A stretch of DNA of 64,000 nt from a virus. The notes below the pieces were generated by a model, which worked only from the letters and a program-made list of their open reading frames with translations, searched no databases and was not told the DNA's origin. Location: the IMG/VR virus record IMGVR_UViG_3300043540_000321, positions 131,212-195,211 of that record, one strand, 5' to 3'. Shown here piece after piece: positions 5,075 to 49,850 of the stretch; the first letter of the stretch is position 1, and every line of letters starts with the position of its first letter. Position numbers and translations under genes: made by a program.

Positions 5075-6175
5075 ATGCTTACACTACTCGCGGGAGGAGT
5101 GCTTGGCACCGCCGTGGGGTGGTTGTTCGCACGTATCCCTGGACTCTCTTCAATGCACGCGATGTGGCTGTCCATGATCATTGGATTAATAAATCCTGCA
5201 GCCAGTGTCGCAGCAGTAGCATCGAGCTACATCGTTTCAACATTCCTGGGCTCAGCTAAAGAAGCACTGACCCCAATGTTGTCGGGCGATATTAATGCAG
5301 TAGCGGCTGGAGACCCAGCGGCGGCTGTGTACCTAGACACAAAAGATTTCGCTCAGAACATTTTCTGGGGGAAATTCGCAGGTCTGGTTGCTGGTTTAAT
5401 GGCTGGATGTTTCATGTGGTGGCTGATGCCTGGAAGCATAGGGATGCTAGTGGCGATCGCACTCATGGCGATCAGTACCCGCAGGCTCGGAAACAAATGG
5501 GTGAACCTCGCGTTCATCCTGGTCAGTCAGCTATTCTTCTGGGTAGCTCCAATAGTCGGAATCAGTCAACCCATATTTGCTCTGGTTACAAGTTTTTACA
5601 TGATTCCATCGTGCCTGGGCGCTCATTTTACAGAGAACATAGGCTATGGAACAGACAAGGTCTCCTTCAAGAACGAAGGAACGAAAGGGTTCTTCAGTGC
5701 AATCCTATCGCTGGTATCGCCCGGTATGAGTCCAGGGTTCCTGGTGCTCAGCACGGCGAAGAAGACCAACCCCGCTATTCAGGTCGCGGTGGCTGGAGCC
5801 AGTATGTTCTTAGAAGGGTTCGCCATCTCGGCTGCCCTCAATGGAAGAACCGTTCATAAGGCTGTCCTCGGAATCGAGGTGGGAGAGCAAAATATCACCA
5901 CGCCATTGGCAATTATGCTATTGGTGCTGGCGATGCTCTGTCAAAGATGGCTACCCCAGACCTACACACATTATCTGGCGATAGTCCGAAACAAACGCAA
6001 CTTCGAAATGGCGAAGCATATCTCACTCGTAGCAGCTATTGGCACATGTGCTGTCTGTGCAGGCTGGCTTAGTGTGGTGCTAATTCCAGTTGGGCTGCTG
6101 CTCAATAGTCTAATTAAAGAGACTGGAACGCCTGGCACCGTACGATCGATGTTATTCGCCGGGGCTTTGCTATAG
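5075..6175 (+). CDS. Polytopic membrane protein, TctA (tripartite tricarboxylate transporter permease)-like
   Basis: About 10 or more hydrophobic segments; G..G.L...IPGL near the N-terminus and a second SPGMSPG motif mid-protein, resembling the internally duplicated TctA motifs. Confidence 0.5.
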   Translation: MLTLLAGGVLGTAVGWLFARIPGLSSMHAMWLSMIIGLINPAASVAAVASSYIVSTFLGSAKEALTPMLSGDINAVAAGDPAAAVYLDTKDFAQNIFWGKFAGLVAGLMAGCFMWWLMPGSIGMLVAIALMAISTRRLGNKWVNLAFILVSQLFFWVAPIVGISQPIFALVTSFYMIPSCLGAHFTENIGYGTDKVSFKNEGTKGFFSAILSLVSPGMSPGFLVLSTAKKTNPAIQVAVAGASMFLEGFAISAALNGRTVHKAVLGIEVGEQNITTPLAIMLLVLAMLCQRWLPQTYTHYLAIVRNKRNFEMAKHISLVAAIGTCAVCAGWLSVVLIPVGLLLNSLIKETGTPGTVRSMLFAGALL

Positions 6176-7603: not shown

Positions 7604-8272
7604 TATAAGGTAGATTAATTTTATCTTCTGATAAGGTATCAGACTATGCTCAACCTTCATCGTGCGCTGGAAAATGACCGCCTGTTGAGGGCGTTAACTG
7701 GGCTGAATCGCAAAGCGTTTGACGAGTTGTGCGAGATCTTCGGTGCAGTCTATCAAGAGACACTCCAAAGCGATCTTAAACCACGAAAACGAGCTAGAGG
7801 CGGGGAGAGGAAAGCTCGGTTGGGGAGTATGGCAGCCAAACTATTCTTCATCTTGTTCTATTTCAAGTGTTACCCGACGTTCGATGTTTTAAGCTTCCTG
7901 TTTGATTTAGAACGGGGCCGAGCGAATCGGTGGATGCATCGTCTACAAAGGATTCTGGAAACAGCTCTGGGTAAGAAGATGGTGTTACCCGAACGGAAAC
8001 TCGAAAGTATTGAGCAGTTTCTAGAACGGTTTCCAGCGGTGAGGGAGGTGATTTTGGGTGGGACAGAACGTCCCGTGCAGCGTCCCAAAGATACCGAGAA
8101 ACAGAAGCAGCATTACTCTGGCAAGAAGAAACGGCATACTCGCAAGCACATCACGGGTAGCACGCGAACCAAGCGAGTGATTATCCTGACCCCAGCCAGA
8201 GCTGGGAAGATGCATGATAAGCGGCAACTGGATGAAGCAGATTTGGTGGGCCTGGTGTGCGATCAATGTTAA
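7604..8272 (+). mobile_element. Truncated IS5-family (DDE_Tnp_4 type) transposase remnant
   Basis: ORF 7646-8272 has LFFILFYFKCYPTFD (HTH) and TERPVQRP...YSGKKKRHT; first catalytic Asp appears as Gly (VILGGTERP); sequence diverges after DEADLVG; left boundary approximate. Confidence 0.85.
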
Positions 8273-8285
8273 CTGAGAGGACTCG

Positions 8286-10295
8286 ATGAGAATTTCAGAC
8301 CCAGCCGAAACCAACGAAGCATTTTACACTCTACAGAAGGCTGTGGAGCAAAGAAACTTTCTAGTCGCATTGATCGAAGGGAAGTATCAAGCGTATTGTC
8401 TCCTACGGGCGGAAGCACAAACCACAGAGGAATTCCTTATCCTCCTGGGTGCTAATCTAGTCCTGGAACGTTTACTGGAAGAGATCGGCAAGGGCCATCT
8501 GTGTGACCCTGAGTTCGTCGAACCGAGTCTTCTAAAGAAAGCCCGCTTGCCCTATTTCTTTGGTAATGAGTATGACTATGCCCTCGGAGAAGATAACAGC
8601 GACGGCTGAAAATTTAATTCAGCATTCGATTGAGTTCGTCTACAAAGGAATGGTCATTAAAGGGGAGATCCTGACCCGTTTGCGCCCAGACACGGCCACT
8701 CTGGAGCAACCTTACCTGAGAGTAAATGGGCGGAACCCTGTGCTGATTCCATACAGTCTTCAGATGACAGCGGTTAAAATCATCTCTGCGCAGCGAATGG
8801 ACGATGAATACAATAAGCTGTGCGAAAAACTTTTTCGAGGTTGTTTATTTCCATAGAGGGAAAGAAATATGAACTTTAAGGCACGTTTCCTAACGACGTT
8901 AGCCTGCCTCCTACTCGGGTTTGCTGGGTTTGCTACAGCAGGCGGTAAGAGGTTCGCCAGCAACCTTTCCGCTGTGTTAATCGGAGTTGGAGTTGGGATG
9001 ACCCTGAACGAAGCCTTCCGGCGAGAGGACGAAGTTTTTGGGGATGAGAATGATGACAGTCGTTTTTACTAAATATGCCGCAGAGTTAAGGACAGATATC
9101 AAGCAGCGGACTCGACTCTGCGGTATTAAGAACAATACCTATGGGTCGGGGCTAAACCTTATAGCCAAGATGGTGGCGCTGGCAAAGACCGACTTCCCTT
9201 TCCTCATTGACGGAGACTTCTGGGTAGTGTCTTATGACGGCGACCGCTGGAAGAGGCAAACTGGTATCGAATTTGAAGTACCCACTGAATGTCCACTGCC
9301 TAAGGATTACCAAGTGTGCGATCGCCTGGAGTATATCTTCGCTGGGAATAAATCTTGATCGATTGATGGAGCAAGTATGAAGCCAACGCAAATATTTTAC
9401 ACAGGAGTAGTTATAATAGTCCTGGGGATTGCTGGAGCCTTTGGGGGTCTCTGTACCGGGAGTAAAGGGCTGTCGCTCTTTAGCCTTTTCGGTCTAGCCT
9501 TCGGAGGAGGAGTGATGACGGCTGGAGTTTTAGCATCGGCGAAACCTGACAATGACCTCTACTAACACAAAACGAAGAACCGACCACTGGTGGGAGTTCT
9601 CTCACGATTTAATAAAAACTCACGCTTTTCCAGGCGTAGTTGAAAATGTCAATTTGCGATGGCAGTCCCCCAGCTCCGGACGGGATATCGATATGATACC
9701 GCTCGGTAACGACCTGGCCCTCATCCTGCCGATCGGACTGAACGATACGGAGGAAGACCCAGAGCTGGATCAGGCTCTAATAAACGCAGAGAGGATAGAA
9801 GCCCATTGGAGGAGTTACTGTGAGGAAAACGGACTTCCTACTTCTAAGGTAAGTACGAATGTTGAAAGTATCCTGTCTCTTGTCTACCCATTTGTCGATC
9901 GCATTGCGGGCAGTACTGTTCCTTACGTCATCACCTTTAACCAGAACGACCTGACTGAGTATTTTACAGCTCAGATAAAGGAGCGGGACTGGGAGTTTAT
10001 TAAGCAAAAGGCCCTCTCCAATACTGAAGAAGTCTGTGGAGAGCCCGACTTGAGAGAGGGGTCTGCATTCCTTGGTTCAGTGATGAGCCTTACGCCCAGT
10101 GGCAAGGTGTATATGCCCTGGTCTTCTAATGTGACCCATGAGGAAGCCTGGATTGACTCTGTTTGGTGGGAGGCCTTGGAGAGTGTCGCCGAACAGTATG
10201 GGATGTATGTGGGGTGTGGTGAAGAGTGTGCGAGTGATGTGTTCGCGTTTATAGAGGTCAAAGTCGAGGAGGACGCTGATGACGACGACCGTTAG
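8286..10295 (+). other. Run of hypothetical genes
   Basis: Overlapping or coupled ORFs 8286-8609, 8560-8856, 8869-9072 (TM), 9038-9358, 9377-9565 (TM) and 9552-10295 (acidic). Confidence 0.65.
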
Positions 10296-10774
10296 CAATG
10301 TAGGCGAGTCTATTATCCTGCGCTTGCCCGAGTTCGGAGAGCATCTAGACAAAGGACTCGAGATGATTATTGGAATCTATATGAGCTGTATACCTTTTTG
10401 ATCGAGCTGCTTAAGCAGTTCGGAAATCTCGATGTCCGGATTAAAGGAGGAGACCTCTGAAGTCTCTCTTCTCTTATCTGCGTATTGCAGGTACTGGGTT
10501 TGAGTCTTACGTCGACGAAGAAAGTGTCAAGAAGTGGTTGAAAGTCAATAGACCGGATGATTACGGAATCCTTTTTCAAGAGGAGGAAACTGATGACGAT
10601 CTACTTTAGATCGCTTAAAATCGAACCTGAAGAGACCGTAGCTGTATGTGATGTCTACAGCGCGGGACGGGATTACTACTAACTTGTGATGTCAGTTATT
10701 AGTGAAATGAACCAAGGGAGCCCCTGTGAATAAGGCTCCCTTTCTTTGCCCAGAGGTTTCTCCCGTTGAAGTTG

Positions 10775-10819: not shown

Positions 10820-10865
10820 TAATCAACCGGAGGTGCTCGAGGAGTGCCAACCTATAACATAAAGA

Positions 10866-10936
10866 TGCCCCCAATAGGAATTGAACCTATGTAGACCCTT
10901 TTAAGGAGGGTTGCATAACCACTATGCTATGGGAGC
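10866..10936 (-). tRNA. tRNA-like gene with anticodon UUA (ochre suppressor-type or pseudo-tRNA)
   Basis: GCTCCCA-TA-GCAT-AGTGGTT-ATGC-A-ACCCT-CCTTAAA-AGGGT-CTAC-ATAGG-TTCAATT-CCTAT-TGGGGGC-A; complete cloverleaf with U8/A14, G15/C48, G18G19 and TTC; C33 is atypical; CCA not encoded. Confidence 0.85.
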
Positions 10937-10976
10937 AAGTTAATAGAGTGTTCATCCATTTTAACGAGAGGACATT

Positions 10977-11650
10977 ATGTCTGTACCTATCCTTCAAAAT
11001 TCTACCACAGTCCTGAACGCGCTGTTGAGAGGTCGGGTCGAAGGAGTTCTTACCGTGCTGGACCAGCATTGCAAATTAGAGGGCGAGGAGTTGTATAAAA
11101 CCTTCGTCGAGATTTGTGCAATCCATCTACAAATGGATGAAGAAGAAGTTAATTACTGGGCAAGAGATTATTTTGCAGAATATGTCAAAGACGAAGGAAG
11201 AGACCCCTCTTAGGGACCTAGATTACAGACCAGAGTTCCGCCGTCTGGTCTTGAAAGAAGACTCAACCTATTGGAAAAAAAGAGTTTGTCGAGAAGTGCG
11301 GTGGGGCTATCTATGCTGTCTACGTCTACGACTCTCGCGAAGTCACGCACCTGTGTGAACTAGACCCAAGTTACTGCTGCTACCTGGTGGAGTATTACCC
11401 GGAAGAGATGCCAGAGGATGAGTGGGAGCATGAGAGGCTCTTAGACGAGCTCGATGAGGCATGCAACTTAAGCTGTTTCGACGGCGATCGCGTCACCTAC
11501 TTTCACTGCTCTCAAGTTGACAAAATTCCGTTGGATAATACTCACCCGTGGTTAAGTAAGCACGCTGTCATGATTGATTATGAGACCAGTCCAGAAGACT
11601 GGGACTTAACCTACGAAGAAGCACTTAGTGAAGTCATAAGCGAGGCTTGA
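10977..11650 (+). other. Small hypothetical genes
   Basis: ORFs 10977-11213 and 11387-11650, acidic and phage-like. Confidence 0.55.
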
Positions 11651-17695: not shown

Positions 17696-18349
17696 ATGAA
17701 AATGACTGAAACTCAAACCCGGGTTAGCCTCGGGCGTTTACAGGAATTATTAAAGTCTACGTGGTTGCCTATTGTCGAAGGTCTGCACGATGAATTCGAC
17801 TACCTGGATATCTACAAAAATACGAAGCCTCATGTTGGCTACGAAGGATATATCCCTTTCGTTGATGGGGGAGCTGAGTTTTGGGTGATGATTAGCTCCT
17901 GGGAGATTATTGAGAACTCTTGGTTCCAGACCACGATCGGGCCTGCGCTGCAAAAGTCCTTCTGGGATGAAGTTAATACAGCGGACGACGCTGAGTCCGG
18001 CAAGGACGAAAAGTTCTTTGATGAGCAGCTAGATTACTACGACTCGTATGAGGCCGGTGTCTGGCTGAAATGCCGATGCTTGGTGGAAGAGTTGGAAGAT
18101 GGGTCTTGGGAAGCTTCCTTCGATAGCTACCTCTGTGAAGATAATTACGGACGAGACTACATCTCCTGGCTGAGGTGCTACGGTGCGAATCCTAACCAAA
18201 CCGTCGGCGACTTCCTTGAGGTTGTCCACCAAAACGACTTCGAGACGGAAGAGGGTCTAGTGAAGTTCCTTCGGAATGTAGCCCAACAACAGGTCGACTA
18301 CCTTAAGCAGTTAAGAGATGGGATAGAGGAAAAAGAGGAGGAGAGTTAG
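17696..18349 (+). CDS. Acidic hypothetical protein
   Basis: 217-aa D/E-rich ORF. Confidence 0.7.
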   Translation: MKMTETQTRVSLGRLQELLKSTWLPIVEGLHDEFDYLDIYKNTKPHVGYEGYIPFVDGGAEFWVMISSWEIIENSWFQTTIGPALQKSFWDEVNTADDAESGKDEKFFDEQLDYYDSYEAGVWLKCRCLVEELEDGSWEASFDSYLCEDNYGRDYISWLRCYGANPNQTVGDFLEVVHQNDFETEEGLVKFLRNVAQQQVDYLKQLRDGIEEKEEES

Positions 18350-49479: not shown

Positions 49480-49850
49480 CTGACAACACCCCGTGACTTC
49501 TAGCCACGGGGTTCTTTAGGTTATCGGTTTCTCCCCCAGGCTCTCGCACGAAGCTACAGCATCCTGGGTCTTAAAATCTTCCCCTAAAGCTTTCGAGACG
49601 ACCCTCTCCGACGCAGCGTTGTCACTACGTTGACAAACCATCGGTTTGCCGATTGAAGATTGGTTATAGCGCGTGGTCGCCTGTTGCCAAGCCGTCATCA
49701 GGATGGTGTCCCAACCTTGACCCCAGACTTGACTGGCTAGAGTCGCATTGAAACAGGCGGTTTCAAGATCCACAAATTGACCCAAGAATCCGCTAAACAG
49801 ATCCCGTTGGGAAATAATGCCGCACTCACAGCGATGCACTCGCATACTGA
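49480..49850 (-). mobile_element. 3' fragment of tnpB with right end (same family as 30108-31658)
   Basis: RVHRCECG...QRDLFSGFL; end hairpin ACCCCGTGGCTAGAAGTCACGGGGT then GTTGTCAG. Confidence 0.85.

Follow-up and report, generated by a model that had tools for sequence, protein, structure and literature searches.

The 195,211-bp genome of a large cyanomyovirus, held as an IMG/VR virus record that is rated 100% complete, contains a single tRNA gene, and the anticodon of this tRNA is UUA, which is predicted from the sequence to read the ochre stop codon UAA and, by wobble, UAG as well. The gene is 71 nt long and lies on the minus strand at positions 10866-10936 of the window, i.e., of the whole 64,000-nt stretch of DNA that was analysed (bases 131212-195211 of the record); the coordinates below are those of the window unless the genome is named. 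It is a genuine, intact phage gene with an ochre-reading anticodon, an accessory of a hypervariable early region, which would have originated most likely from a Lys(UUU)-type tRNA and less likely from a Glu(UUC)-type tRNA by a change of position 36. We infer that in the infected cell it may be expressed and charged and would suppress UAA (and UAG) non-specifically and with low efficiency, inserting Lys or Glu, the unusual C at position 33 weakening or insulating the suppressor without killing it; the benefit, if any, would consist in a low-level global read-through or in another effect on host translation. This interpretation of the gene as an accessory weak general ochre/amber suppressor, read from the sequence, is offered tentatively and falls somewhat short of an even chance.

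The structure of the gene was described consistently by several programs. ARAGORN, which the earlier note on this DNA had named as a check, found no tRNA in the 64-kb window other than the one at 10864-10937 of the minus strand, which it labelled tRNA-Stop with the anticodon tta, and the Rfam model RF00005 matched 10866-10936 (minus strand) over its full length (1-71), scoring 61 bits where the gathering score is 29, with an E-value of 3e-13. The acceptor, D, anticodon and T stems have 7, 4, 5 and 5 bp, respectively, with zero mismatches in the 21 stem pairs and U3-G70 as the sole non-Watson-Crick pair, and the conserved tertiary positions are present. The variable loop is 4 nt long and the T loop reads UUCAAUU; the discriminator is A73, directly followed by TCT, so that CCA is not encoded. 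The cloverleaf is also the minimum-free-energy structure in RNAfold (-25 kcal/mol, z -3.1). The anticodon loop CCUUAAA (C32, C33, U34, U35, A36, A37, A38), closed by the stem arms ACCCU and AGGGU, has the UUA anticodon in a 7-nt loop on a 5-bp stem and the purine at position 37 that are expected of an ochre suppressor, and it has C in place of the expected U33. The sequence A36-A37-A38 with a purine at position 37 is usual for tRNAs reading U-initial codons, which are the substrates of MiaA. Accordingly, the cloverleaf, the UUA anticodon, C33, the U3-G70 wobble and A73, all described in the earlier note from the letters alone, proved correct throughout by ARAGORN, Rfam, RNAfold and the sequence itself, and the ambiguity of the amino-acid identity seen there persists, narrowed here to a Lys-like or Glu-like tRNA.

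The identity of the phage was assessed from its structural genes. PHROGs annotations of the genome include the tail sheath, the major head protein, the prohead protease, the portal and a class II ribonucleotide reductase. The head protein found by tblastn among the GenBank phages only Microcoleus phage My-WqHQDG (34% identity) and the group of Microcystis phages Ma-LMM01/MaMV (30%), while in a large protein collection it had 117 relatives, mostly 45-67% identical, one of them from Leptolyngbyaceae cyanobacterium JSC-12, where its contig measures 5.5 Mb. A capsid gene of 90% identity is present on a 2.2-kb NCBI contig (P0001). Relatives were found with a capsid alignment as the query and none with the single capsid protein, and two of the capsid relatives in IMG/VR are classed as proviruses. 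The cyanobacterial HIP1 octamer, the palindrome GCGATCGC, occurs 78 times in the whole genome against about 3 occurrences expected from base composition. Thus, the phage is a large cyanomyovirus, and its host is probably a filamentous cyanobacterium. Four related genomes of 172-208 kb were fetched, the proteins of which are 25-60% identical to those of the phage; one of them, G410, is probably the JSC-12 provirus. One short ORF of the window (109 aa; positions 49516-49845 of the minus strand; 180727-181056 of the genome) matches part of G410 with 87-95% identity, against about 24-60% for the other shared proteins compared, which suggests a recently exchanged mobile element or a shared host pool. 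With its CxxC zinc-ribbon-like motif, the ORF may represent the C-terminal end of a nuclease of the transposon type.

The genome uses the standard code and is not recoded. With code 11, as much as 92% of the genome is already taken up by stop-to-stop ORFs of 100 codons or more, and in a greedy call of 242 genes the stop codons are TAA in 96, TGA in 86 and TAG in 60 cases, so that TAA is the commonest stop (40%); it ends the genes of the capsid, sheath, portal and nrdJ and both giant RNA-polymerase genes. The statement of the earlier note that TAA serves as an ordinary stop, e.g., in nrdJ, without wholesale recoding, is thereby borne out. No block of 5 or 10 kb in the whole genome gained coding density specifically with TAA taken as sense. 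Recoding near the tRNA was considered for the 130-135 kb block of the genome, which gained the most coverage with TAA as sense (from 0.58 to 0.95), and rejected because TAG and TGA as sense also raised it (0.84 and 0.80) and because the block consists of genes of 60-100 aa. With 40% of the genes ending in TAA, those of the capsid, sheath and portal among them, this phage would pay a high price for a suppressor that worked efficiently.

A client gene, i.e., one that would be expressed by read-through of UAA, was sought in several ways. All the TAA-ended genes with a long in-frame continuation proved to be followed by an adjacent gene, most with an ATG 1-4 codons past the stop and several of the downstream genes with a preceding Shine-Dalgarno sequence; an equal number of long in-frame continuations follows TGA-ended genes, and the number of in-frame TAA gene pairs is within chance expectation. 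Codon-usage scoring on both sides of 299 in-frame TAAs with open flanks revealed nothing beyond the adjacent gene pairs. When 1,449 stop-spanning frames with flanks of at least 25 codons were compared by tblastn with the four relatives, which are only 25-60% identical in their proteins, no TAA-interrupted gene matched a continuous ORF and no conserved read-through extension was found; five stop junctions of the called genes (four TAA and one TGA) aligned across the stop, and in the four for which the displayed alignment was long enough, G410 likewise stops at the junction or close to it. A second stop within 5 codons follows 23% of the TAA-, 24% of the TGA- and 23% of the TAG-ended genes, with no excess for TAA, and the context of stop codons showed no difference among the stop types in the genome. 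The two giant single-chain RNA-polymerase genes, of 3395 aa (genome 102011-112198) and 1442 aa (genome 123266-127594), both upstream of the window, are each preceded in-frame by a TAA-ended ORF (genome 112202-112468 and 122090-123256, respectively), with the polymerase ATG 1-3 codons after the stop; G410 keeps this arrangement with a stop of its own, and the pairs are probably a case of translational coupling.

The lack of a client gene and of conservation in the relatives counts against a suppressor; given both, the simplest functional reading of the tRNA would be a weak general suppressor rather than one dedicated to a particular gene. The first ~25 kb of the window (1-25000), inside which the tRNA lies, consists mostly of genes of 60-250 aa, only two of which (5075-6175 and 17696-18349) have homologues in the four relatives of 170-210 kb, and it is a hypervariable, ORFan-rich accessory region. 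The 247-aa neighbour gene has no relative in IMG/VR, and the nearest well-scoring neighbour, of 186 aa, found only itself among 5.8 billion proteins. A DDE_Tnp_4 transposase fragment is located 2.3 kb from the tRNA at 7646-8272, possibly continued at 8286-8609. The tRNA is antisense to its surroundings: the plus-strand genes on one side end at a G+C-rich, 11-bp terminator-like hairpin (10714-10742), and the next plus-strand gene begins at 10977. This hairpin, found by the terminator scan and in the sequence and suited to both directions, closes the upstream plus-strand operon and, read on the minus strand, follows the tRNA at a distance of ~125 nt. A consensus scan placed a promoter-like site on the tRNA's own strand at 10999-11028 (TCAACA, an 18-nt spacer and TG-TAGAAT), ~55 nt upstream of the tRNA, which would imply a leader of ~55 nt; the site falls within the plus-strand ORF 10977-11213. 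An ORF farther along the minus strand, at 10367-10579 past the tRNA, has a negative coding score and was rejected as spurious. The promoter-like site upstream and the hairpin downstream, both on the strand of the tRNA, speak for the suppressor, the former only suggestively, as the scan of the region gave two promoter-like sites where chance alone would give 1.4. The suggestion of the earlier note that the gene may be a relic of an integration site finds no footing at the locus: the tRNA is full-length, no 13-mer of the tRNA with its 60-nt flanks is repeated anywhere in the genome as an att-like copy would be, and no integrase was found near it among the ORFan neighbours, which together argues against an attachment-site relic.

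No homologue of the tRNA was encountered, and the four large relatives have none with its loop. Neither a near nor a distant DNA match to the locus or to the tRNA was found among the GenBank phages; a pattern of the D-arm and anticodon stem with the loop left free had no match in IMG/VR; the exact CCUUAAA loop with the T-loop gave no UUA tRNA among the at least 113 IMG/VR stretches listed, which are mostly short-arm tRNAs with the anticodon UAA; in 401 cyanobacterial genomes the tRNA had partial BLAST matches only (best E 5e-4); and the JGI metagenomes had no homologue, the sole match being a tRNA-Lys. The homologue search that the earlier note had proposed returned, over all these searches, neither a relative with the same loop nor the sense-anticodon homologue by which a decayed pseudogene would have been recognized. 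Nine of the 20 related IMG/VR records contain tRNAs, from 0 to 9 per record, comprising Lys(UUU) in the relatives G402 and G403, Thr(UGU), Arg(UCU), Met(CAU), Trp(CCA), Leu(UAA/UAG), Pro, Ala and one nine-gene array; the relatives of 43-61% capsid identity have no UUA tRNA and none that is identical to the ochre tRNA at more than 50 of 71 positions. The differing sets among relatives indicate that the tRNA content is highly fluid in this phage family. The tRNAs of Ma-LMM01 and MaMV-DC (Tyr, Met/Ile2) were considered and are unrelated to the ochre tRNA.

The body of the tRNA, judged by its parts, is a mosaic with a Lys(UUU)-like D-arm and loop and a cyanobacterial Glu-like acceptor and variable loop. 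On the Lys side, A73, U34, U35, C32, A37 and A38 fit, and the variable loop does not, having 4 nt instead of 5. The BLAST matches in cyanobacteria fall on tRNA-Lys(UUU) genes of tRNA arrays (L132, L133), and the tRNA-Lys(UUU) of a metagenomic Ile/Asn/Lys/Val array (L259) has A73, the loop CUUUUAA and an identical D-arm and T-loop, the identity of the last two having been required by the search pattern. On the Glu side, the nearest in the complete set of 39 tRNAs of cyanobacterium G233 is tRNA-Glu(UUC), identical at 50 of 71 positions, with 46 for the next best; its acceptor stem GCCCCCA/UGGGGGU matches GCUCCCA/UGGGGGC of the phage tRNA at 6 of 7 positions per strand, and A73 and the 4-nt variable loop match, while the D-stem (GCAU/AUGC here, GUCU/GGAC in Glu) and position 38 do not. 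UUA is reached by a single change at position 36 from Lys(UUU) and from Glu(UUC) alike, and beyond position 36 the sole difference from the Lys loop CUUUUAA is U33C. A nearest-neighbour isotype assignment over 1,139 class I tRNAs was discarded since our own search patterns had biased the tRNA set, and a scan of genome contigs with the acceptor-stem pattern, the listed matches of which were mostly actinobacterial Arg, Thr and Lys tRNAs, was uninformative on the ancestry; the same scan also led to a Cyanobium match. Cyanobacterial genomes and a related phage fragment contain dense tRNA arrays, with up to 9-16 genes per 1-2 kb (L252-L254 of cyanobacterium G017, L132, L133, L151, and L190 of the phage relative G414); the tRNAs of these arrays are A+U-rich and differ from the housekeeping set, and it is among them that the ochre tRNA had its best partial matches. 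In IMGVR_UViG_3300035182_002586 (L446; 529 kb, megaphage-sized), a canonical ochre-type tRNA with the loop CUUUAAA has the acceptor GCUCCCG/CGGGGGC and shares the U3-G70 wobble with the present tRNA, the remaining body being different.

The presumed ancestry by two loop changes bears on whether the gene is real and still maintained. That the loop of an ordinary sense tRNA was altered by assembly or sequencing deserves almost no credence: the source is a metagenome-derived virus record, but the nearest sense loop, CUUUUAA of Lys, would become CCUUAAA only through two separate base differences, and the remaining gene and the surrounding ORFs read cleanly. The main rival to a suppressor is recent decay, according to which a former Lys(UUU) or Glu tRNA suffered U36A and also U33C, is functionless and is being lost. 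The fast turnover of tRNAs in the family, with 0 to 9 of differing identities per record and Lys(UUU) among those of G402 and G403, would supply such a parent and its loss; the absence of a homologue in any search and of a client gene, together with the 25-kb setting in which only two genes are homologous in the four relatives, is also what decay would leave. However, everything outside the loop is perfect. If a canonical Lys-type ancestor is assumed, simple arithmetic gives ~0.8-1% for two neutral hits in 71 nt both falling inside the 7-nt loop, and if the first loop hit had already freed the gene from selection, a further random hit would have only a ~10% chance of landing there. The flawless body combined with both departures from the Lys loop (CUUUUAA to CCUUAAA) inside the loop is thus improbable for neutral decay and points, on the sequence, to a structure that is still maintained. 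The retained promoter-like site also speaks against decay, and on balance we regard it as unlikely.

The frequency of non-canonical residues at position 33 was surveyed among 294 distinct tRNAs of the fetched loci, where U33 was found in 288, C33 in four and A33 in two, so that the background of this sample is ~1% for C33 and ~2% for any non-U33 residue. C33 was observed in the Thr(UGU) tRNA of the phage relative G402 (L201) and in the Val(UAC) tRNA of the metagenomic array L259, and A33 in the Ile(GAU) tRNA of the phage relative G404 (L200) and in the His(GUG) tRNA of an array in cyanobacterium G017 (L253); none of the 39 tRNAs of cyanobacterium G233 has a non-U33 residue. The non-U33 tRNAs of the sample are mostly phage or array tRNAs, which would fit a relaxed constraint there and so the decay of the present gene. 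The yeast tRNA-Leu(GAG) has a natural C33, and its C33 and U33 forms are equally functional (PMC13492127). C33 is thus compatible with decoding. In the yeast tRNA as in that of the phage, the body is normal apart from a C at the position where U33 is nearly universal, and the yeast tRNA loses little function by it; it is, however, a eukaryotic sense tRNA and not a predicted stop reader.

Tentatively, by analogy, the suppressor is favoured over decay by the recurrence of intact UUA tRNAs in other viruses. An IMG/VR scan for the canonical loop CUUUAAA with the T-loop found at least 29 intact UUA tRNAs with diverse bodies, all with U33 by construction of the U33-loop pattern; one body, TCCCTAC..., is present in at least 8 of the listed loci with small differences, and about half of the listed loci look standard-coded locally. 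The IMG/VR scan also revealed at least 61 class I tRNAs with the anticodon UAA (73-78 nt, short variable arm), called Leu(taa) by ARAGORN (L318-L430, e.g., L371, L323 and L393), and 10 more are among the actinobacterial genome matches listed (L014, L021, L033 and L035 among them); many of these have a D-arm of the type GCCCAAUGGCAGAGGC. The standard tRNA-Leu has a long variable arm, from which such a class I reader of the UUA codon departs.

Natural and laboratory counterparts of the phage tRNA are known. A Sup:UUA tRNA is annotated in Bacillus phage G, its loop being left without comment (PMC12484599), and Klebsiella phage phiKp24 carries tRNA-Sup-TTA (PMC8386662). Both resemble the present case as orphan predicted UUA tRNAs, no genome-wide recoding being reported in either phage's paper. 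The loop of the phage G tRNA (JN638751, L304:2198-2271) reads CCUUACG, i.e., it also has C33, along with C37 and G38, and the gene lies within a cluster of 17 tRNA matches directly upstream of the tmRNA gene; C32 and G38 of this tRNA could pair, which would leave a 5-nt loop. The tRNA described here differs in being alone, in its canonical A37 and A38 and in the cyanobacterial host phylum.

The ochre suppressors selected in the laboratory in E. coli, supG/supL (tRNA-Lys UUU to UUA), supB (tRNA-Gln) and supC (tRNA-Tyr), are weak and also read UAG (reviewed by Eggertsson and Soll 1988). The supG/supL type is like the phage tRNA in its class I body, in the UUA anticodon one position-36 change from Lys, in A73 and in A37-A38; however, it is a laboratory-selected mutant, while the phage tRNA is natural, has C33 and is accompanied by no sense parent copy in the genome.

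In the recoded gut phages, such as the Lak and crAss-like phages, the suppressors read TAG or TGA and many in-frame stops are recoded, chiefly in late genes, and in the same study TAA suppressors were tabulated and no TAA recoding was described (10.1101/2021.08.26.457843). They share with the present phage a tRNA reading a stop codon in a host of the standard code, but in the present genome TAA is a genuine stop more often than TGA or TAG, and no gene or block is recoded.

A role outside decoding has to be weighed as well, in which the Lys/Glu-like U34-U35 arm would bind or divert a tRNA-targeting nuclease or modification enzyme of the host, the altered positions 33 and 36 making the tRNA uncleavable or excluding it from translation. 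An altered anticodon stem-loop does allow phage tRNAs to defeat defences that cleave tRNA, as with the tRNA-Lys of T5, which resists AriB of the PARIS system (PMC11464382), and a general anti-nuclease hypothesis for phage tRNAs was put forward (PMC10264068). The T5 tRNA is likewise a Lys-like phage tRNA with an anticodon stem-loop off the host consensus; the D-arm and loop of the ochre tRNA are Lys-like, C33 is found also in the UUA tRNA of phage G and in the Thr(UGU) tRNA of a relative, and the hypervariable accessory region that houses the gene may be the usual seat of counter-defence functions. However, the T5 tRNA and all the documented cases retain a sense anticodon and act by taking the place of the host tRNA that is cleaved, which a UUA tRNA cannot do, and no defence or anti-defence gene was identified adjoining the tRNA. 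For the gamma-toxin of K. lactis, which cuts Glu, Lys and Gln tRNAs, U33C did not change the cleavage and any change of the anticodon abolished it (PMC2275089), which also counts against such a role. This possibility is, thus, considered improbable. We know of no described precedent of a decoy tRNA with a stop anticodon.

A more specific proposal about the same residue is that C33 is a selected signature of natural phage ochre readers, which throttles suppression or hides the tRNA from a host enzyme. It is hinted at by the recurrence of C33 in the present tRNA and in Sup:UUA of Bacillus phage G against the background of ~1%, and we would hold it quite improbable. If it were true, C33 would be the means by which a phage of the standard code could afford a UAA reader, and as an attenuator it would explain the tolerance of an ochre suppressor by such a phage.

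The weak general suppressor therefore stays the preferred, tentative interpretation, with some probability left for roles other than those weighed here, of a gene that is a further member of a known and functionally unexplained class, the orphan stop-reading tRNAs of standard-code phages, which have been annotated repeatedly, in phage G, in phiKp24 and in many IMG/VR contigs. What distinguishes the present member is that it is the genome's only tRNA, that no client was detected for it, and that it has C33 in common with the phage G copy. A lone ochre reader in a phage that ends 40% of its genes with TAA, with no client detected, speaks against the idea that tRNAs of this kind are always there to unlock one particular gene; the readings left for it are a weak global read-through, a non-decoding role or a recent decay.
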